Source: Myxococcota bacterium (GTDB lineage: Bacteria; Myxococcota_A; UBA796; UBA2385). Taken from it: a stretch of 64,000 bases of DNA. The position numbers and the translations under genes were made by a program. The stretch lies in contig JBIJDH010000002.1 of the NCBI GenBank assembly GCA_044344255.1, positions 448,001 through 512,000 of the forward strand, written 5' to 3'. Under the pieces are notes generated by a model. The model saw only the letters and a list, made by a program, of their open reading frames with translations. It was not told the origin of the DNA and did not search any database. Shown piece after piece: positions 33,152 to 61,910 of this stretch. The stretch's first letter is position 1. Each line of letters opens with the position of its first letter.

Positions 33152-34357
33152 ATGCACGTGGCCTTCGTCAACCTCTGGTGGCCGCCCGCCCTCGAGAGCC
33201 CCGCCGCGGTGGTGGCCGCCGATCCGCTGCGGCGCGCGCTCTCCCACGCCCTGCTCGCGCGGGGGCTGCGGGTGACCGTCATCCAGGAGTGGCGAGAGGA
33301 CGCGATCTTCGAGGACCGTGGCGCCGAGGGGGGCTCGGTCACCTGGCGCTTCGTGCGCACCCGGCCCTCCACCCGCGCCCTCCGCGCCCTCCTCGGCGCC
33401 GCCGGGCGGCGCGACGCCTTCGTGAAGGCGCCCTCGACGGCGCCGCTCGCCGCCCTCGCGGCGCTCCACCCCGACCTCATCCACTCCTTCGACCTCACCG
33501 CCACCGCCAGCCTCGCCTTGCTCGGCCGTTATGCTCGCGGGCGCGGGATCCCGCTGGTGGTGCACTTTCACGGCGGGGCCCCGGCTCGGATGGCGCCCCT
33601 GCGCGCCCTCGAGCGCCACGCCCTCTCCCGCTGTGACCGACTGCTCTTCACGGCCCGAGCGCAGGGCCTGGCCTGGGTGGACGCTGGGGCGCTCCCCGAT
33701 GATCGGCGCCTCGTCGAGGTCTTCGAGACCACCACCCTCTTCAGCCCGGGCCCGGCCCCCCGCCTGGAGGGCGCCCCCGCCTGCCTCGCGGTGGGTCGGC
33801 TCGACGCCGTGAAGGACCCGCTCACGCTGATCGAGGGCTTTCGGCGCCTGCGGGAGGCCCGCCCCGGGGCCGTGCTCCACCTCGCTTACACCGAGGCGCC
33901 CGCGCGGGCCGCGGTGGAGCGGGCGGCGGCGGGCCTGCCGGTTCGAATGCTGGGGCGCGTCGAGGATCCGCAGCCCCTCTATCGCGGCGCCGATTTGTTC
34001 TTGCAGGCGAGCACCCGAGAGGTCTGCGGGCGAGCCCCCCTCGAGGCGATGGCCAGCGGCCTCGTGCCGGTGCTGAGCGACATCCCGGCCTTTCGCCGCC
34101 TGACAGGTGACGGCGCGGTGGGCCGCCTCTTTCGAATGGGAGATCCAGACGATCTGGCACGGGCAGCGCTCTCGGTCACCGACCCCGAGGTCGAGGGGCG
34201 GCGCGCGCGGGCCGCCTTCGAGGCCCGGCTCTCTCCGGCGGCCCTCGCCCGCGAGGTCCTGGCCGTCTACGAGAGCTGCGCCCAGGAGAGGAGGCGGAGC
34301 GGGCCGCGCACCGCCGAGAGCCCGCCTGCGGCCAGCCAGTCGAGCTCCTCGCGGTAG
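33152..34357 (+). CDS. Glycosyltransferase family 4 (GT-B)
   Basis: VGRLDAVKD, ADLFLQAS, E.CG..PLEAMASG, SDIP. Confidence 0.85.
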   Translation: MHVAFVNLWWPPALESPAAVVAADPLRRALSHALLARGLRVTVIQEWREDAIFEDRGAEGGSVTWRFVRTRPSTRALRALLGAAGRRDAFVKAPSTAPLAALAALHPDLIHSFDLTATASLALLGRYARGRGIPLVVHFHGGAPARMAPLRALERHALSRCDRLLFTARAQGLAWVDAGALPDDRRLVEVFETTTLFSPGPAPRLEGAPACLAVGRLDAVKDPLTLIEGFRRLREARPGAVLHLAYTEAPARAAVERAAAGLPVRMLGRVEDPQPLYRGADLFLQASTREVCGRAPLEAMASGLVPVLSDIPAFRRLTGDGAVGRLFRMGDPDDLARAALSVTDPEVEGRRARAAFEARLSPAALAREVLAVYESCAQERRRSGPRTAESPPAASQSSSSR

Positions 34358-35025
34358 GTGGGGTCGTGGGGGTTGCCCGGGTGGGCCATCAGCTCGACGC
34401 TGGCCCCGCGGAGGAGGCGGCGGTGGAGGGGGTCGCGGAGGAGCGCTCGGAAGACCCGCACGCTCATGAACTCGTCAGTGGTGAGCGCCCCGTCGGCGCG
34501 GAGGGCCCTCCGGAAGCGCCGAGCCCGGAGCCACTGGGCGAGGCCCCGCGCGCCCACCCCGAGCCGCCAGGCCCCCATCGTGCGCGTGCGGCGGAGGCCG
34601 AAGCGGCGCCGAAGCTCGGCGACGACGCCGAAGAGGAGGGGCTGGTGGTGGAGGTGCTGGTGGGAGTCGAGGTGCGAGATCACGAGGCCCGCCGCCCGCA
34701 CCCGCTCGATCTGCGCCGCCCACTCGCCGAGCACCGCCGCCCGCTCGGCGGGCCCGGCGTGGAGGCCGAGGGGAGAGAGCGTCCCACCCTGGAGCAACGG
34801 GGTGAGCCCCGGGTGGTGGGTCAAGGGCGGCCCCTCAGAGAGGTTGAGGTGGACCCCGACCGGCGGTGAGCCCAGGCCGCGCAGCCGCCCCGCCGCGTCT
34901 TCAAAGGCCGGCCCGTTGGCCATCAGCGAGGTGGAGCTGCACCAGCCGAGCCGGAGCGCTCGCTCGATCGCCTCGTTGATCTCGACGCTGAGGCCGAGAT
35001 CGTCTGCGTTAACGATCACCCGCAC
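34267..35025 (-). CDS. ChbG/HpnK (YdjC) family deacetylase
   Basis: NADDLG, GVHLNL, HLDSHQHLH, ELMAHPG; 3' end overlaps the GT4 gene convergently. Confidence 0.88.
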   Translation of the reverse strand: MRVIVNADDLGLSVEINEAIERALRLGWCSSTSLMANGPAFEDAAGRLRGLGSPPVGVHLNLSEGPPLTHHPGLTPLLQGGTLSPLGLHAGPAERAAVLGEWAAQIERVRAAGLVISHLDSHQHLHHQPLLFGVVAELRRRFGLRRTRTMGAWRLGVGARGLAQWLRARRFRRALRADGALTTDEFMSVRVFRALLRDPLHRRLLRGASVELMAHPGNPHDPTYREELDWLAAGGLSAVRGPLRLLSWAQLS

Positions 35026-35056
35026 GCCGCCGCCCTTATCCCTCAGCCGTCAGCCG

Positions 35057-36874
35057 TCAGCGGTCGCGGCCGCCGCGCTTGGTGCCCTTGCGGTCGTCTC
35101 GGCGGCTGTCCTTCTTGGTGTCCTTCTTGGTGTCTTTCTTGGTGTCCTTCTTCGTGTCCTTCTTGGTGTCCTTCTTGGTGTCTTTCTTGGTGTCCTTCTT
35201 CGGGTCCTGGTCGGTCGTCTCCTGGTCGGCCATGAAGTACAGGCCGCCGCCGGCGCCGAAGACGAAGAAGCCGCCGCAGATCAGCGCGGCGACGATGCCG
35301 ACCACGGCGACGATGGCGGTGAGCGAGAAGCCTCCCTTCTCGTCGTCGACGGTGGCATAGGGGACCTCCGCAGGTTTGGGCGGCGGGAGGGGGGCCGAGC
35401 GCGCGGGCTCCGCAGCCTTGAGCGGCTCCGCAGCCTTGAGCGGCTCGACGGCCTTGGGCGGCGCCAACGGGGGGGCGGAACGCGGGGGGATGCCTTGCAC
35501 CGGCTGGAGCAGCGGTGAGACCGGCGGCTTCTGGGGCTCGTAGGGCAGCACGGGCTCGTAGGGCTTCGGGGGCTCGTAGGGCCGGGCGGGCTGGTAGGGT
35601 CGGGTCGCCCCCTCGTACGGCTTGAGGAGCGGGCTGCCCTCGGGGCGACCGAGCGGCGGCGGTGCTGGCTCAACGGGGAGGGGAGGGGGCGCGAGGCGCG
35701 GGGCCTCGACGGGGAGCGGCGGCGACACCGCGGCGGCGACCGCGACCGCGGCGGAGGCTGCGGCGACCGTGCCAGCGACCGCTGGGGCGATCTTCCCGGT
35801 GGGCAGCTCCACCGTGGAGGTCGGCGCGCCGAAGTCGGGCAGCGGGGGCGGGAGGTCGCCGCTCAGGGGGGGCGGCGCGATCGGGAGCGCGGCGAGGGGT
35901 GGCGGGATCGGGAGCGCGGCGAGGGGCGGCGCGACCTCCTGCGGGGGAGCCGGCGGCGCGGCCTCCGGCGGACGGAGGAAGTCTTCGCGCCACTTCTCGG
36001 CGAGGGGGTGCAGGGTCGCGAGCCCGGCCTCGCGGGCGGAGCGCCAGACCACGGCGTCGGCGGCGAGGCGGGTGCCGAGGAACCGGTAGACCGGCAGCAC
36101 ATCGGCCCCGACGGCCAGCAGATCGGCGGCGACATCGAGGCCCTTCAGGGCGACGGGGAGGCCGCGCTCGATGGCGTCGGCGGCGGGGCCGGCGTCGCGG
36201 GCGGTGGCGAAGGCCACGCTGTCGATCAGAAAGACGAGGTCTGGGAGGCGCAGGCGGGCGCGGCTCACGGCGTCGGCCCCGACGACGGCGGCGAGCTTCC
36301 CGGCCTGCTCGTCGAGGTGCTGGGTGACAAAGCCCGCCAGGACGCCACGGGCGCCGATGGTCTCCTGGAGGAAGGGCAGGGCGACCTCGGCGGCGGCCAT
36401 GTAGGCGACGATGCCACGCCCGGCCTCGATCGCGATTAGCTCGCCAATGGGCTCCTCCTCTCCAGGGAAGAGGCGCTCGAGCAGGTGAGCGAGGGCCAGG
36501 GCCTTGAGGACAGCGTCCTTGGCCTGCATGTCGGCCCAGCCCGCGGGGGGGGCCACGCTGCCGCCCTTCTTGCTCCGGTAGAGCTGGAAGGCGGAGCGCA
36601 CGCTGGTGAAGATCGTGACTACGCCGTCGCCGGCGTCGAGGCCGGTGGCGATCCAGACCGCTTTGCGGACGGCCTCGTCCTGGCTCAGGGCGCGCGCACG
36701 CTGCCCGATCGCCCCGGAAGGCGCCTGCGTGTAAACCGTAGAGATGGCGTCGAGGCTGCGGCCCTCGGACAGCGGGTCTACATAGGGGAGCGCGTTCAGG
36801 AGCCCGTTGCAGAGCAGGACCGTGACGTCGCGGGGGCCGAACTTATCGAGCTGGGCGTCAAGATCGGAGGACAA
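35057..36874 (-). CDS. Hypothetical bitopic protein: helical N-domain, Pro-rich linker, TM helix, KKDT-repeat tail
   Basis: TTG start after GGAG; TM LTAIVAVVGIVAALIC; 12-bp repeat tail. Confidence 0.7.
   Translation of the reverse strand: MSSDLDAQLDKFGPRDVTVLLCNGLLNALPYVDPLSEGRSLDAISTVYTQAPSGAIGQRARALSQDEAVRKAVWIATGLDAGDGVVTIFTSVRSAFQLYRSKKGGSVAPPAGWADMQAKDAVLKALALAHLLERLFPGEEEPIGELIAIEAGRGIVAYMAAAEVALPFLQETIGARGVLAGFVTQHLDEQAGKLAAVVGADAVSRARLRLPDLVFLIDSVAFATARDAGPAADAIERGLPVALKGLDVAADLLAVGADVLPVYRFLGTRLAADAVVWRSAREAGLATLHPLAEKWREDFLRPPEAAPPAPPQEVAPPLAALPIPPPLAALPIAPPPLSGDLPPPLPDFGAPTSTVELPTGKIAPAVAGTVAAASAAVAVAAAVSPPLPVEAPRLAPPPLPVEPAPPPLGRPEGSPLLKPYEGATRPYQPARPYEPPKPYEPVLPYEPQKPPVSPLLQPVQGIPPRSAPPLAPPKAVEPLKAAEPLKAAEPARSAPLPPPKPAEVPYATVDDEKGGFSLTAIVAVVGIVAALICGGFFVFGAGGGLYFMADQETTDQDPKKDTKKDTKKDTKKDTKKDTKKDTKKDTKKDSRRDDRKGTKRGGRDR
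35105..35200 (-). repeat. 12-bp coding repeat x8 (KKDT x7, KKDS)
   Basis: Read directly from the sequence. Confidence 0.95.
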
Positions 36875-57352: not shown

Positions 57353-59041
57353 TCAGCGCCAGTCGATCTCGATCGGCAGGAGCAGCAAGGGGCGCTCGGG
57401 CTGCTCGAAGAGCATCTTCGGGACCAGCCCGAGCTCGCCGACGAGGCGGGGGAGGAGGTCTGCGGCGCGCAGGCTCGCGCCACGCCCGAGCAGGCTGTTG
57501 AGGACCTGAAAGCGCGGCGGGGGGAAGCGGATGTGAGCCTCCGAGCCCGGCCGCTCTCGCAGGCCGGCGAGGGAGCGGGCCCGCTCGAGGGCGAGGTCGA
57601 GGCCGCCCAGGTGATCGACGAGGCCGTGGGCGAGGGCCTGGCGACCGGTCCAGACCCGGCCCTGCGCGTAGGGCTCGATGGCCGCGACCGGGCGGCGTCG
57701 GCCGGCGGAGACGACCTGCAAGAAGCGGTCGTAGGTGCGGGTCAACATCCGCTGGAAGCGGGCCCGCTGGTCGGCGTTGAAGGCCTCCCACGGGCCCATC
57801 ATCCCAGCGTCGGGGCCGACGGCGAGGGTCTCGGCGTGCACGCCGAGCTGACCGAGGGCGGGCCCAAAGACGAGCTTCCCGCCCACCACGCCGATCGAGC
57901 CCGTGATGGTGCCCTCGGCGGCGATGATCTCGGCCGCCGGGGCCGAGAGGAAGTAGCCGCCGCTGGCCGAGACGTCGCCGAAGGCCGCCACCACGGGCTT
58001 CTGTTGGCCGAGCCGCTGCACCGAGCGGGCGATGAGGTCGCTCGCCAGGGCGCTGCCCCCCGGACTGTTGACGTACAGCACCACCGCGCCCACGTCGTCG
58101 TCTTTGGCGAGCGCGTCGAGGACCGGCACCACCCGGTCGGCGTCGATGCGGTGGCCCGCCCCGCCGGAGGCCTCGGCGCCATGGACGATCGGCCCCTCGA
58201 GGTGCACCACGACGGTGCGGCTCTCGGGCTCCCCGAAGCTCTGGAGCCAGCGCTCGAGGGCGGCCCAGAAGGCGTATCGGCGGAGGGAGACCGGGCGCAC
58301 CTCCTCGCTCAGGAGCTCCTCGAGCTGGGCGTGGGCCTGGTCGGGCCAGGCGAGGCCGTCTACCAGGCCGAGCTCCGCGGCCCGCTCCGCGCAGAGCGGG
58401 CTCTCGGCCATCGCGGCGCGCACGCGGTCTTCGGGGATGTTGCGCCCTTGGGCGATGCCCTGGATCAGCCGATCCTGGAGGTCACCGACGAGGGAGAGCA
58501 TCTGCTCTCGGTTGGCCGCCGAGGCGAAGGCGCGCGTGTACGGCTCACCGAAGCTCTTGTAGGCCCCGGCGGCCATCAGGTCGACCTTGACGCCCAGCCG
58601 CTCGAGGAGGTCACCGTAGAAGGTGAGCTGGGCGCCCATGCCTTGAAGCCAGGCCTCCCCGCTCGGCGTGAGCCAGACCCGGTGGGCCACGCTGGCGAGG
58701 TAGAGCTCGCGGAGGCCCGCGGAGTCGAGGTGCACGACCACGAGCTTGCCCGCCGCTCGGAGCGCGACGAGGCCTGCTCGCAGGCCCTGGAGCGAGGCCT
58801 GGCCGCCGGAGAGGTCGCGCAGATCGAGCACGACCGCGCGCACGTAGGGGTCAGCGGTGAGGCTCTGGAGGGCCTGCAGCGTGGTGACGTGCCCGTGCAG
58901 CGAGCCCTGACTGCGGTCGCGGCCGAGGGCCACGCGCACCACGGCGCGCCGGCGGAGCTGGAGCCGGCGGATCAGGCCCACCGCCTGTTTGGGGCCCCAG
59001 GCCAAGGAGGCGGCGACGAAGGACCAGAGCAGGCTGAGCAA
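57353..59041 (-). CDS. sppA: Signal peptide peptidase SppA, tandem-domain type
   Basis: GAYKSFGEP, VNSPGGSALAS, SASGGY, TITGSIGV, QGRVWTG. Confidence 0.9.
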   Translation of the reverse strand: MLSLLWSFVAASLAWGPKQAVGLIRRLQLRRRAVVRVALGRDRSQGSLHGHVTTLQALQSLTADPYVRAVVLDLRDLSGGQASLQGLRAGLVALRAAGKLVVVHLDSAGLRELYLASVAHRVWLTPSGEAWLQGMGAQLTFYGDLLERLGVKVDLMAAGAYKSFGEPYTRAFASAANREQMLSLVGDLQDRLIQGIAQGRNIPEDRVRAAMAESPLCAERAAELGLVDGLAWPDQAHAQLEELLSEEVRPVSLRRYAFWAALERWLQSFGEPESRTVVVHLEGPIVHGAEASGGAGHRIDADRVVPVLDALAKDDDVGAVVLYVNSPGGSALASDLIARSVQRLGQQKPVVAAFGDVSASGGYFLSAPAAEIIAAEGTITGSIGVVGGKLVFGPALGQLGVHAETLAVGPDAGMMGPWEAFNADQRARFQRMLTRTYDRFLQVVSAGRRRPVAAIEPYAQGRVWTGRQALAHGLVDHLGGLDLALERARSLAGLRERPGSEAHIRFPPPRFQVLNSLLGRGASLRAADLLPRLVGELGLVPKMLFEQPERPLLLLPIEIDWR

Positions 59042-59139: not shown

Positions 59140-59219
59140 GCCCCGGCGCAGTGGACCCCCGGCGCAGTGGACCCCCGGCGCAGTGGACCCCCGGCGTTCT
59201 TGACCCCTGGTTTTCTTGA
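59140..59219. repeat. 16-bp tandem array, 5 units with polar degeneration
   Basis: (g/c)ccccggcgcagtgga x3, cccccggcgttcttga, cccctggttttcttga. Confidence 0.9.
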
Positions 59220-59273: not shown

Positions 59274-59789
59274 GTGTCGACCAAGAATTGCCCGAGCTGC
59301 GGCGCAGACGTCCCCAGCGCCGTTCAGCGGTGTAAGCACTGCTTCCATGACTTCACTGAGGTGCCCGCCAAGAAGAGCGGCCCCATCGTGCTCCTCGGCG
59401 CGATCACCCTCACGCTCGTCCTGGCGCTCGGGATCGTCGGCTACATGTTCACGACGATGGCCGCCGAGAAGACGGTGGTGGACGAGGAGACCACCTCCAT
59501 CATCGTCACCCGCAAGTCGGTCACGGGCGACGTGAAGTCGGAGCGTTACACCTTCGACTCCATCAGCCGGGTCGAGTACGTCACCGGCGGCGACAAGTCG
59601 CTCTACGAGGTCGTGGCGGTCACCAACGACAACAAGCGGGTCTACGTGCAGCGGTCGAGCGACGAGCCCCTCGGCCCCGAGGCGGCCCACATCGCCACGG
59701 TCCTCAACAAGCCCCTCGTGACCGTGAACAACGTCCAGGGCGTAGACGCCGCCGATAAGATCAACGCGGAAGCCGCAGGGAAGAAGTAG
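59274..59789 (+). CDS. Zinc-ribbon bitopic membrane protein
   Basis: GGAG then GTG; CPSC...CKHC, one TM helix, beta-rich C-domain. Confidence 0.8.
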   Translation: MSTKNCPSCGADVPSAVQRCKHCFHDFTEVPAKKSGPIVLLGAITLTLVLALGIVGYMFTTMAAEKTVVDEETTSIIVTRKSVTGDVKSERYTFDSISRVEYVTGGDKSLYEVVAVTNDNKRVYVQRSSDEPLGPEAAHIATVLNKPLVTVNNVQGVDAADKINAEAAGKK

Positions 59790-59794
59790 TCGGC

Positions 59795-60823
59795 GTGTTC
59801 GACCAGGCGCTCGGGCGGCTGTCGACCGACGTCGCCATCGATCTGGGGACCTCGAACACCCGCGCCTGGGTGCGGGGGCGCGGCGTCGTCGTCGAGATGC
59901 CCTCTGTCGTGGCGGTCGAGCGGAGCGGAAGCAGCGGCAAGGTGGTCGCTGTCGGGGCCGAGGCCAAGCGCATGGTGGGGCGCACCCCCGAGAACATGCA
60001 GGCCGTCACGCCGATCCGCGAGGGGATCATCGGGGACTACGCGCTGGCCGAGGCCCTGCTCCGCGACTGCATGAGCCGGGCCCTCTCGGCGCGGCCCCTG
60101 GTGCGGCCGAGGGTGCTGATCCCCGTGCCCACCACGAGCACCGACGTCGAGCGGCGGGCCGTCCAAGAGTCGGCGCGTTCTTGCGGGGCGCGGGAGGTGC
60201 TGCTCGTGACCCGGGCGGTGGCGGCGGCGGTCGGGGCGGACCTCCCCATCGGCGAGGCCTCGGCCAACGTGGTCGTCGATCTGGGCGGCGGCCTCACGGA
60301 GATCGCGATCATCAGCCTCGGCGGCGTCGTCGAGGCGGCCACGCTGCGGGTCGGGGGCACCGCGCTCGACCAGGCGATCGCCGGCTGGATCCGCGACCGT
60401 CACAACGTCCTCGTCGGCAGCCGAGCCGCGGAGGAGGTCAAGCTCGTGATCGGCTGCGCCACGCGCCCGCTCTCGATCACCGAGGTGCGGGTGACGGGTC
60501 GCGACCTCACCACCGGCATCCCGCGCGAGGTGCTGGTCAGCTCCGACGACGCCCTCGCCGCGGTCCAGGGCCCCCTCGATCGTTTCGTCGAGGGGATCCG
60601 GGTCGTGCTGTCACGGCTCAGCCCCGAGCTCTCCGCGGACGTGGCAGATCACGGCATCGTCCTGACCGGCGGCACTGCGCTCCTGCCTGGCCTCGACGCC
60701 TGGCTCCGCGAGCGGACTGGCGTCCCGGTGGTCGTGGCCGAAGAGCCTCGCCTGGCCACGATCCTCGGCGCGGGCCGCCTGCTCGAAGACGCCGAGACGC
60801 TCGACCGGGTCCTGCTCGGCTGA
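59795..60823 (+). CDS. mreB: MreB-family actin-like protein, divergent paralogue
   Basis: IDLGTSNT, PSVVA, GRTP, VERRAV, VVDLGGG, GRDL..GIPR, PELSAD, GIVLTGG. Confidence 0.9.
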   Translation: MFDQALGRLSTDVAIDLGTSNTRAWVRGRGVVVEMPSVVAVERSGSSGKVVAVGAEAKRMVGRTPENMQAVTPIREGIIGDYALAEALLRDCMSRALSARPLVRPRVLIPVPTTSTDVERRAVQESARSCGAREVLLVTRAVAAAVGADLPIGEASANVVVDLGGGLTEIAIISLGGVVEAATLRVGGTALDQAIAGWIRDRHNVLVGSRAAEEVKLVIGCATRPLSITEVRVTGRDLTTGIPREVLVSSDDALAAVQGPLDRFVEGIRVVLSRLSPELSADVADHGIVLTGGTALLPGLDAWLRERTGVPVVVAEEPRLATILGAGRLLEDAETLDRVLLG

Positions 60824-60899: not shown

Positions 60900-61910
60900 A
60901 TGTCCTACCCCGAGCCAGGCCGCCCCTCCCTCCTCGACGAGCCCGCCCTGCTCGAGGTGCGCGACCATGGCGTGGTCCTCCGGCGGGGGCGCACCGATCG
61001 CCCCGAGGCGGTGCGCGTGATCCAGCGGGCGCTCTGCGCCTTCGGGCTGCCGGTGGCGGTCGATGGGGTCTTCCACGGCCCGATGGAGGCGGCGGTGCTG
61101 CGGCTCCAAGCGCAGGTCGGGCTGCCGGCAGACGGGCGGGTGGGGCCCTATACGCTGCACGCCCTCCACCAGGCGCTGCTCACCGGAGAGGTGGCCCGCG
61201 CCGCGCCGCCGCCGCCGCCGCCCGTGCGCGGCCTCTTCGGCGGCGACCGCTTCGGTGACCGGGTGGCGCTCACCTTTGATGACGGCCCGCACCCGAAGCA
61301 CACGCCGCGGATCCTGGATCTGCTCGCGGCCGCGCATCTCCCGGCCACCTTCTTCGTGCTCGGCAACCGCGCCGAGGCGCAGGCCGAGCTGCTCCGGCGC
61401 ATCGTCTCCGAGGGGCACAGCCTCGGCTGCCACAGCTGGGATCACGCCGACCTCGGCCGGCTCCCGGAGGCGGCCGTCGAGGCTCAGCTCCGCGACAGCG
61501 CGCGGGCCATCGAGGCCGCGCTGGGGCCGCCCGTCGAAGGCGCTCCGCCGCGGCCGCCGCTCTGCCTCTTCCGCCCGCCCTACGGGTCCCCCTGGTTCGA
61601 CGCCAGCGCGCGCCGGAAGGAGCGGGTCGGGGCGGTGGTGGCGCGGCTCGGCTGGTCGGTGATCCTGTGGAGCTGTGACAGTCGAGACTGGGTCCACGTC
61701 GGTCACCCCGAGCGGATCGTCGAAGAGGCCCGGGTCTCCTTGCGGCCGGGCCGCGGAGGTGTGGTCTTGATGCACGACATCCACCCTCAGACCGTCGAGG
61801 CCCTGCCCGGGCTGATCGCGCTCGTGGCCGAGCTCGGTCTCACGGTGGTGCCGCTGGAGGCGCTCCTGGACAGCAAGTACGGGCCCCCGGCCCCTGGGGC
61901 GATGACGTGA
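60900..61910 (+). CDS. Polysaccharide deacetylase (CE4/NodB) with N-terminal peptidoglycan-binding domain
   Basis: VDGVFHGP/ADGRVGP.T PG-binding repeats; TFDDGP, HSWDH, RPPYG, LMHD. Confidence 0.9.
   Translation: MSYPEPGRPSLLDEPALLEVRDHGVVLRRGRTDRPEAVRVIQRALCAFGLPVAVDGVFHGPMEAAVLRLQAQVGLPADGRVGPYTLHALHQALLTGEVARAAPPPPPPVRGLFGGDRFGDRVALTFDDGPHPKHTPRILDLLAAAHLPATFFVLGNRAEAQAELLRRIVSEGHSLGCHSWDHADLGRLPEAAVEAQLRDSARAIEAALGPPVEGAPPRPPLCLFRPPYGSPWFDASARRKERVGAVVARLGWSVILWSCDSRDWVHVGHPERIVEEARVSLRPGRGGVVLMHDIHPQTVEALPGLIALVAELGLTVVPLEALLDSKYGPPAPGAMT

Follow-up and report, generated by a model that had tools for sequence, protein, structure and literature searches.

A conserved MreB with a basic residue at the catalytic glutamate position, probably deficient in ATP hydrolysis, in a Myxococcota order that mostly lacks MreC

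The mreB gene described here, referred to as copy A, encodes a full-length, conserved MreB that, judging from its sequence, probably still binds nucleotide and is deficient in hydrolysis, as a first-pass annotation had proposed. Our best explanation, to which we assign a probability of about 0.5, is that copy A is an ATP-binding, hydrolysis-poor scaffold kept for a job outside the Rod complex, most likely in Agl-Glt gliding.

RESULTS

An intact mreB gene with an altered catalytic site

The window, by which we mean the whole stretch of 64,000 nucleotides that was analyzed, contains an intact frame of 342 amino acids with a GC3 of 0.93. The features of the gene are as follows.

59795..60823, plus strand: mreB copy A, 342 aa, MreB/Mbl family with altered catalytic site (family profiles; fold match to Caulobacter crescentus MreB, CcMreB)
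59840..59860, plus strand: phosphate-1 loop D16 to T22, retained (D16 and G18 in 62/62 top homologues)
59990..59992, plus strand: E66, a fixed change specific to the clade; Gly in 89% of canonical MreBs (column comparison)
60146..60148, plus strand: V118, antiparallel inter-protofilament contact, retained (alignment; contact role from PMC4051119)
60212..60214, plus strand: R140 at the catalytic Glu position, codon CGG; Lys in most orthologues (alignment to CcMreB)
60293..60295, plus strand: L167 at the water-holding Thr position, codon CTC; variable among orthologues (alignment to CcMreB)
60299..60301, plus strand: E169, invariant in the clade (Glu in 24/24 genome orthologues and 62/62 top homologues)
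60758..60760, plus strand: T322, equivalent of V324 in the A22 pocket; relaxed to Ala/Thr across the clade (alignment)

Copy A is a full-length member of the MreB/Mbl family, scoring 379 bits against PF06723, 374.3 against TIGR00904 (cut-off, 365.75) and 378.6 against NF010539 (cut-off, 293). Its AlphaFold model (pLDDT 91) matches CcMreB (PDB 4czj) with a TM score of 0.88 to 0.95 and an rmsd of 1.8 Å, and the 24 best-ranked structure matches to the model are all MreB/Mbl proteins. MamK and BeeR were considered as identities and rejected, the scores being far under the cut-offs (47 of 400 and 30 of 530 bits, respectively).

The alignment to CcMreB (4cze) is gap-free from residue 9 of the query to beyond residue 215 and thus through the active site, so that R140 corresponds to E140 and L167 to T167. 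This bears out the first-pass annotation, which had placed both replacements at codons 140 (CGG at 60212) and 167 (CTC at 60293) of a full-length frame. The preceding acidic residue, D139 in CcMreB, is also gone (T139) and E169 is kept; the hydrolysis motif E..T-x-[DE] therefore reads R140, L167 and E169 in copy A. Both the DLGTSNT and the GIVLTGG motif, previously described as retained, were found, and sequence conservation indicates that the nucleotide-binding motifs (phosphate 1, phosphate 2, adenosine and E213/K216) are present. The contact residues V118 and A281 (the S283 equivalent) are kept, and the N-terminal helix has a moment of 0.46 and a mean hydrophobicity of 0.09 versus about 0.45 to 0.6 in sister copies.

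The substitutions are neither private to this assembly nor an error: Lys occupies position 140 in 61/62 top homologues, and contigs from two runs of other studies (X9 and X13) span the gene with no change listed at codons 140 and 167 and only 3 differences inside the frame, all synonymous. An assembly error as the source of the substitutions is ruled out by these independent contigs. The stretch occurs in runs from lake, river and freshwater metagenomes, and the named close homologues of copy A are mostly called Myxococcota. Contigs of the RNA run X16, which do not give expression levels, cover the upstream gene and part of mreB.

The hydrolysis motif is consistently altered in a gene under purifying selection

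The E..T-x-[DE] motif is intact in 23/23 sister-order copies and in 74/75 outgroup MreBs, a set picked partly by the pattern GGG[TVL]TE and hence biased towards intact positions 167 and 169, but in 0/24 clade orthologues, which argues that the loss of the motif is not due to chance. When copies were counted by family, after removal of five fragments shorter than 260 aa, the motif was intact in 0/52 copies of families f1, f5 and f6, in 5/17 and 2/14 copies of f2 to f4, and in 6/6 copies of f7.

At position 140, the copies A of f1, f5 and f6 (n = 27) have Lys in 22 cases, Arg in 2, and Thr, Asn or Ser in 3 long-branch copies. Arg140, as found here, is rare (2/24 genome orthologues, 1/119 database homologues). 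Position 167 is more variable: among the 24 orthologues it is Thr in 13, Val in 6, Leu in 2 and Cys in 1, with Thr also kept in 42/62 top homologues, and replacement by Leu, Val, Ile or Cys is found in the subclade containing this gene. The earlier claim that both catalytic-water residues are lost thus holds for this gene but not for the clade; since T167 is kept in most orthologues and Arg140 is rare, the double loss is a feature of the subclade. The signature of the family, as far as the sequences indicate, is Lys140 together with an invariant E169, which may be a partner of the basic residue.

Conservation around the nucleotide is otherwise high. The ATP-contacting and hinge residues D16, G18, G164, G166, G188, D192, E213, K216, G292 and G293 are identical in 62/62 top homologues, and D162 is identical in 61/62. 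At a mean identity of 60%, only 58/326 columns are conserved in at least 61/62 homologues, and K140 is among them. Compared with 98 canonical MreBs, the clade has three fixed differences (K140, G66E and M88L). The equivalents of D189, G294 and V324 are relaxed, and the filament-contact residues V118 and the S283 equivalent (Ala, Ser or Gly) are kept among the homologues.

Selection on copy A is purifying and somewhat relaxed. By simple counting under strong GC bias, dN/dS was 0.010 to 0.284 in 9 within-genus pairs of copy A from f1 and f5, with two f6 pairs saturated, and 0.027 to 0.228 in 8 pairs of canonical MreBs; for this genome against other genera it was 0.40 to 0.48, the value of 0.48 being that against genome G003, where dS is probably saturated. 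Orthologues had been named as the place to look for conservation of the two substitutions, and there K/R140 is fixed and L167 variable. Slow decay of two leftover genes after loss of the Rod complex, with the substitutions as tolerated drift, would fit the branch lengths and dN/dS of copy A, both greater than those of canonical copies, the few badly eroded copies, the high ratio against G003, and the fact that Lys, Gln, Gly and Ala are each one base change from Glu. However, 87/95 genomes keep at least two copies, dN/dS falls to 0.01 between close relatives, K140, E66 and L88 are fixed across proteins that are only 60% identical, and 3/3 variants within the frame are synonymous. Decay is largely refuted by the selection data, and we consider it very improbable.

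Other families of the order have Gly, Ala, Ser, Gln or Arg at position 140, and basic residues occur there in separate branches of both MreB copies, a recurrence that may reflect selection or simply mutational ease. Hsc70 has a catalytic lysine, K71, near the gamma-phosphate, a precedent for a rewired hydrolysis in which Lys/Arg140 would contact the gamma-phosphate and stabilize the transition state and E169, with T167 where it is kept, would activate the water. The near-invariance of K140 and E169, the retention of T167 in 42 of the 62 homologues and the proposal that the Thr-Glu pair rather than E140 deprotonates the water (PMC9597168) are in line with this. On the other hand, T167 is replaced by an aliphatic residue or Cys in the very subclade that contains this gene, the T160A/K substitutions in SpeMreB5 lower Pi release at least 5.6-fold (PMC9597168), and because other families vary at position 140, the changes there look like loss and not like new chemistry. 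We regard rewired hydrolysis as improbable.

Six f1/f6 copies sit on very long branches, some of them with damaged phosphate loops.

Copy A descends from a canonical MreB

Two recurrent loci for mreB were seen in the class. At locus A, sppA is divergent from a zinc-ribbon gene that is followed by mreB; at locus B, surA/M48 is divergent from mreB, which in the sister family f8 is followed by mreC and pbp2. In f9 to f12 (L190-L193, L195, L197, L201, L203), mreC and pbp2 follow surA at locus B with no mreB, and in f10 and f12 a canonical locus-A copy is the only MreB found. In a mixture-model tree of 32 selected rows, A copies from across the orders are grouped (SH-aLRT 91), as are B copies (97). 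A FastTree of 134 rows did not recover the A/B split; in it, the fast-evolving copies of both kinds from the order fell together, which is probably long-branch attraction. From synteny and the mixture-model tree, copy A derives from a normal MreB, one that has the housekeeping role in some families, and is the phylogenetic and positional orthologue of the canonical locus-A copy. The suggestion that it is not the housekeeping copy therefore has to be given up, its orthologue being the sole MreB found in f10 and f12. Copy B once headed the Rod operon.

The genome has two degenerate MreBs and no detected MreC, MreD, PBP2 or RodA

The genome (G000; 8.2 Mb, 95% complete, 83 contigs) encodes exactly two MreBs, copy A and the following.

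L089:10136-11254 (contig C81, about 34228-35253): copy B, the second MreB, with Q140, A165, S167, S169 and R216

Copy B lies at the former position of the Rod operon with no mreC behind it, and its Q140 is the commonest copy B state in f1, f5 and f6 (17/25). A canonical mreBCD operon elsewhere in the genome was looked for and not found: no mreC or mreD was found in this 95% complete assembly, and no PBP2 or RodA match exceeded the cut-off, in agreement with tblastn searches using the MreC, PBP2 and RodA of a relative. The only class B PBP and SEDS matches are below the cut-off and lie about 6 kb apart on contig C2, where the pair resembles FtsI/FtsW of a division cluster. FtsZ is present, as is a RodZ-like gene (HTH_25 plus a weak RodZ_C) that was matched in 11/11 f1 genomes; beyond close families, the RodZ query is too divergent for absence to be judged. 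A flagellin gene is found on contig C14 (L269:7769-8602).

The first-pass annotation had suggested that the protein modulates the canonical MreB. As both MreBs of the genome are degenerate (Q140, S167 and S169 in copy B), there is no canonical MreB for copy A to modulate. That such a protein is encoded by a part of the genome absent from the assembly could be argued from the 95% completeness and the 83 contigs, but the 39 full-length copies from 22 f1 genomes include no intact MreB, a relative assembled as a single contig (G069) also has just two MreBs, each of which has a broken motif, and lacks an MreC or PBP2 match above the cut-off, and the sole canonical operon that occurs beside degenerate copies, in genome G040, looks foreign. 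An accessory role of this kind is hardly credible.

The Rod complex is missing from most of the order

Among 121 class genomes that are at least 85% complete (95 from this order, 26 from sister orders), MreC exceeded the cut-off in 5/95 genomes of the order versus 26/26 of the sister orders. In a separate sample of 41 genomes, PBP2 exceeded the cut-off in 2 and RodA in 1. Within the order, at least two MreB matches were found in 87 of the 95 genomes, one in 7 and none in 1. One of the five MreC genomes is G040 (L189, contig C65), which carries a canonical mreB-mreC-pbp2-rodA operon; since its MreB groups with Kofleriaceae (local support 99), the operon is probably foreign, through contamination or transfer.

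Two families indicate that catalytic loss and Rod loss were separate events. In f7, MreC was found in 0/21 genomes, yet the motif is intact in 6/6 copies examined. In four f4 genomes (G051, G072, G083 and G024; L185-L188), mreC lies directly behind an R140 MreB in 4/4 cases, followed by PBP2 and RodA in 3 of them, the contig of the fourth ending. This R140 MreB has a dN/dS of 0.021 in one pair, and the other copy, where found, is also degenerate, so these genomes possibly have a natural Rod complex run without a hydrolyzing MreB.

In genome G086, a partial PBP2-like match (profile positions 142-463) directly follows copy B with no mreC between them (L290; G086:C2:1060714-1062953), a possible intermediate of loss or reuse of the Rod operon.

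A zinc-ribbon membrane protein gene is linked to copy A

Copy A has the following neighbors in the window.

57353..59041, minus strand: sppA-like S49 peptidase gene, divergent, synteny marker of locus A (profile matches, locus comparison)
59274..59789, plus strand: zinc-ribbon partner gene, 171 aa, ending 5 nt before mreB; N-terminal Cys4 zinc ribbon, membrane helix at about residues 38-56, C-terminal PH-like fold
60900-61910: gene for a polysaccharide deacetylase with a fused PG-binding domain, 76 nt past the end of mreB

The zinc-ribbon gene is present in a single copy in 116/121 class genomes, and no more than 250 bp separate it from mreB in 75 of the genomes (65 plus a further 10). Among 20 sister-order loci, it is followed by mreB in 16, cut by a contig end in 2 and without mreB in 2. 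It had no match in f9 and f11 and, among the matches listed, occurs at none of 80 canonical outgroup MreB loci. The four Cys residues are invariant in 24 proteins. In a structural model (pLDDT 85), the best VIA match is the PH domain of SSRP1 (Z 8.9, rmsd 2.4 Å over 83 residues); no Foldseek match was obtained at an E value of 0.001, and past the zinc ribbon no named family was found. The layout is similar to that of RodZ, except that a zinc ribbon replaces the HTH. We hypothesize that this protein binds MreB; a complex prediction for MreB-A with residues 1 to 36 scored 0.00 and is uninformative either way.

The PG-binding/deacetylase gene showed no clustering with the neighbors of other MreB copies within the short flanks compared. 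Three near-tandem copies of a GC-rich unit of 16 to 17 bp (window positions 59140-59200) lie in the spacer that separates sppA from the zinc-ribbon gene, and run X9 lacks 32 bp there.

The same hydrolysis-deficient filament could have cell shape, division or the envelope as its client, positioning class A PBPs, the divisome, or the RodZ-like and zinc-ribbon proteins without RodA-PBP2. The genes kept in this genome, namely the RodZ-like gene (also in all 11 f1 genomes), FtsZ and the FtsI/FtsW-type pair, fit such a client, and so do the occurrence of the zinc-ribbon-mreB linkage in Rod-bearing sister orders as well and the viability of Caulobacter with E140G/A or T167A as the only mreB (PMC3137890). 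However, within flanks of 1.5 to 4 kb no wall-synthesis gene lies beside copy A. MreB-guided shape control is also known to run through the Rod complex, which is missing here. We consider this client possible, though on balance unlikely.

Gliding genes

The genome contains a gltA/B-C-D-E-F-G-H-like cluster on contig C59 (L271:10239-19873 and L272:386-2399), in which the gltD-like gene was assigned by position and TPR content, and a GltJ-like gene and a cluster of TolQ and two ExbD on contig C36. Together, these genes cover both gene groups A and B of PMC3169522. Most Glt matches are below the NCBIfam cut-offs, and only the CglE, barrel and C-terminal domain models pass. GltG-like genes were found in 86/95 genomes of the order with 9 candidates per genome scored, and sister orders have Glt genes just as often; being near-universal in the class at this number of candidates, GltG is unusable as a test of co-loss. 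Copy A is not near the glt genes. For MglA, PF00025 had no match in this genome, but at an E value of 1e-9 it had none in the control genomes either, and a tblastn search into this genome with the lone class match (from G048) gave nothing clear. Two roadblock genes are present, and no GYF domain was matched in the GltJ-like protein.

The single cluster on C59 joins what Myxococcus xanthus splits in two.

In M. xanthus, MreB is reported to be part of the motility platform (PMC4508894, PMC11135422), a role described as independent of wall synthesis (PMC4508894), which could explain why MreB is retained once the Rod complex is gone. Glt paralogues can also serve sporulation instead (PMC3169522). 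The link between MreB and gliding in this order is circumstantial, and we put the gliding apparatus as the client of copy A at slightly short of an even chance.

DISCUSSION

The mechanism that we propose starts from an MreB that would still bind ATP-Mg and still build membrane-bound antiparallel double filaments, which we think very likely. In all likelihood, its hydrolysis is strongly reduced: with Lys in the clade, or Arg here, in place of Glu140, a basic side chain would replace the water-holding glutamate, and ATP hydrolysis would be very slow or nil. Copy A would then remain in the ATP state most of the time, and its filaments would be long-lived. Since the lineage has no Rod complex, these would guide none; copy A, the degenerate copy B, the RodZ-like protein and the zinc-ribbon protein would instead be kept to provide some other envelope machine with a passive scaffold.

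Published work on the glutamate site makes a stable ATP-state filament the likeliest outcome. E140 and T167 hold the attacking water (PMC4051119). In Bacillus subtilis, hydrolysis is reported to promote MreB disassembly, and the E136A protein, in which most of the Pi release is lost and nucleotide binding is tighter, polymerizes normally (10.64898/2026.07.24.740542). Similarly, E134A of Spiroplasma citri MreB cuts Pi release and filaments still form; this protein polymerizes later, with less bundling and less liposome binding (PMC9195046), and normal filaments are therefore not to be assumed for copy A. Taken together, the engineered mutants at this site (B. subtilis E136A, S. citri E134A, Caulobacter E140G/A and T167A) lose the greater part of their Pi release yet polymerize, and the Caulobacter alleles are A22 resistant. 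In those mutants the charge was removed, unlike in the clade described here, where it is reversed and held fixed.

Insensitivity of copy A to A22 is plausible by analogy, as three Caulobacter A22-resistance positions are changed (R140, L167 and T322, the last equivalent to V324). The compound A22/MP265 binds E140 and the gamma-phosphate (PMC4051119), and E140, T167 and V324 are Caulobacter resistance sites at which E140G/A, T167A and V324A are viable (PMC3137890). In light of this, a bolder version can be formulated, which we hold to be doubtful as a whole: that the entire order has dropped the Rod complex and made both MreBs ATP-locked pseudo-ATPases, in which Lys/Arg140 would mimic the isothiourea group of A22 from within the protein and hold on to both the gamma-phosphate and E169, with room provided by the shrunken V324 position, and that the resulting static filament, anchored by the zinc-ribbon/PH protein, would be a track or platform for Agl-Glt in cells not built by a Rod complex.

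Copy A is a member of the MreB family that is neither an elongasome MreB nor an MreB3. With canonical elongasome MreB (CcMreB, PDB 4czj/4cze, TIGR00904) it shares the fold, about 45% identity, the phosphate and adenosine motifs and the contacts equivalent to V118 and S283. It differs from CcMreB in the changes, in copy A and its clade, of E140 to Arg/Lys, D139 to Thr/Gly, T167 to Leu, V324 to Thr/Ala and G66 to Glu, in being encoded without mreC, mreD, PBP2 or RodA in the genome, and in its linkage to the zinc-ribbon gene. Spiroplasma MreB3 (PDB 7e1c/7e1g; PMC9597168) is likewise a natural MreB whose E..T-x-[DE] motif is broken, with no Rod complex and with MreB paralogues alongside it. MreB3 has Asp, Lys and Ser (or Thr in its signature) at positions 140, 167 and 169 and very slow Pi release (PMC9597168), in contrast to Arg (Lys), Leu (Thr) and Glu in copy A, and the two are 30% identical. 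Moreover, the cell in which MreB3 works has no wall and contains catalytically intact paralogues, whereas this genome has division-wall genes and no intact paralogue. The MreB of M. xanthus in Agl-Glt focal adhesions (PMC4508894, PMC11135422) offers a wall-independent job of the kind for which Agl-Glt-like genes are present here; however, it also serves the Rod complex and is recruited via MglA-GTP and AglZ, and there is no Rod complex here. MamK, BeeR and other stand-alone bacterial actins resemble copy A in having an actin fold outside the elongasome.

Outside Spiroplasma, 95.8% of MreBs have been reported to carry an intact E..T-x-[DE] motif, and MreB3 is the exception that was named (PMC9597168). 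The clade would add another exception, independent of the first and much larger, in a cell apparently without a hydrolysis-competent MreB. In a literature search that took in few subscription papers, neither this clade nor Rod loss in such an order was found described, no mention of E140K/R MreBs in Myxococcota came up, and two Myxococcota genome papers, in the parts of them available, deal with MreB only in passing (10.1101/2021.07.06.451402; 10.64898/2026.07.10.737566). Two debated points are touched by these findings, the role of ATP hydrolysis in MreB and the part that MreB plays in myxobacterial gliding apart from wall synthesis. The order amounts to a natural experiment, with Rod-less MreBs whose motif is intact (f7), charge reversed (f1, f5 and f6) or otherwise broken, and with four genomes that keep a Rod operon behind an R140 MreB. 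It also offers an unnamed, class-wide candidate partner of MreB, the zinc-ribbon membrane protein. All of the proteins are small, and their expression and assay in standard hosts are feasible.

Three genomes, G002 (L082, L083), G032 (L076, L085) and G037 (L084, L087), have two extremely divergent MreBs each (25 to 33% identity), and the zinc-ribbon gene and a GltG-like gene are still present in all three.
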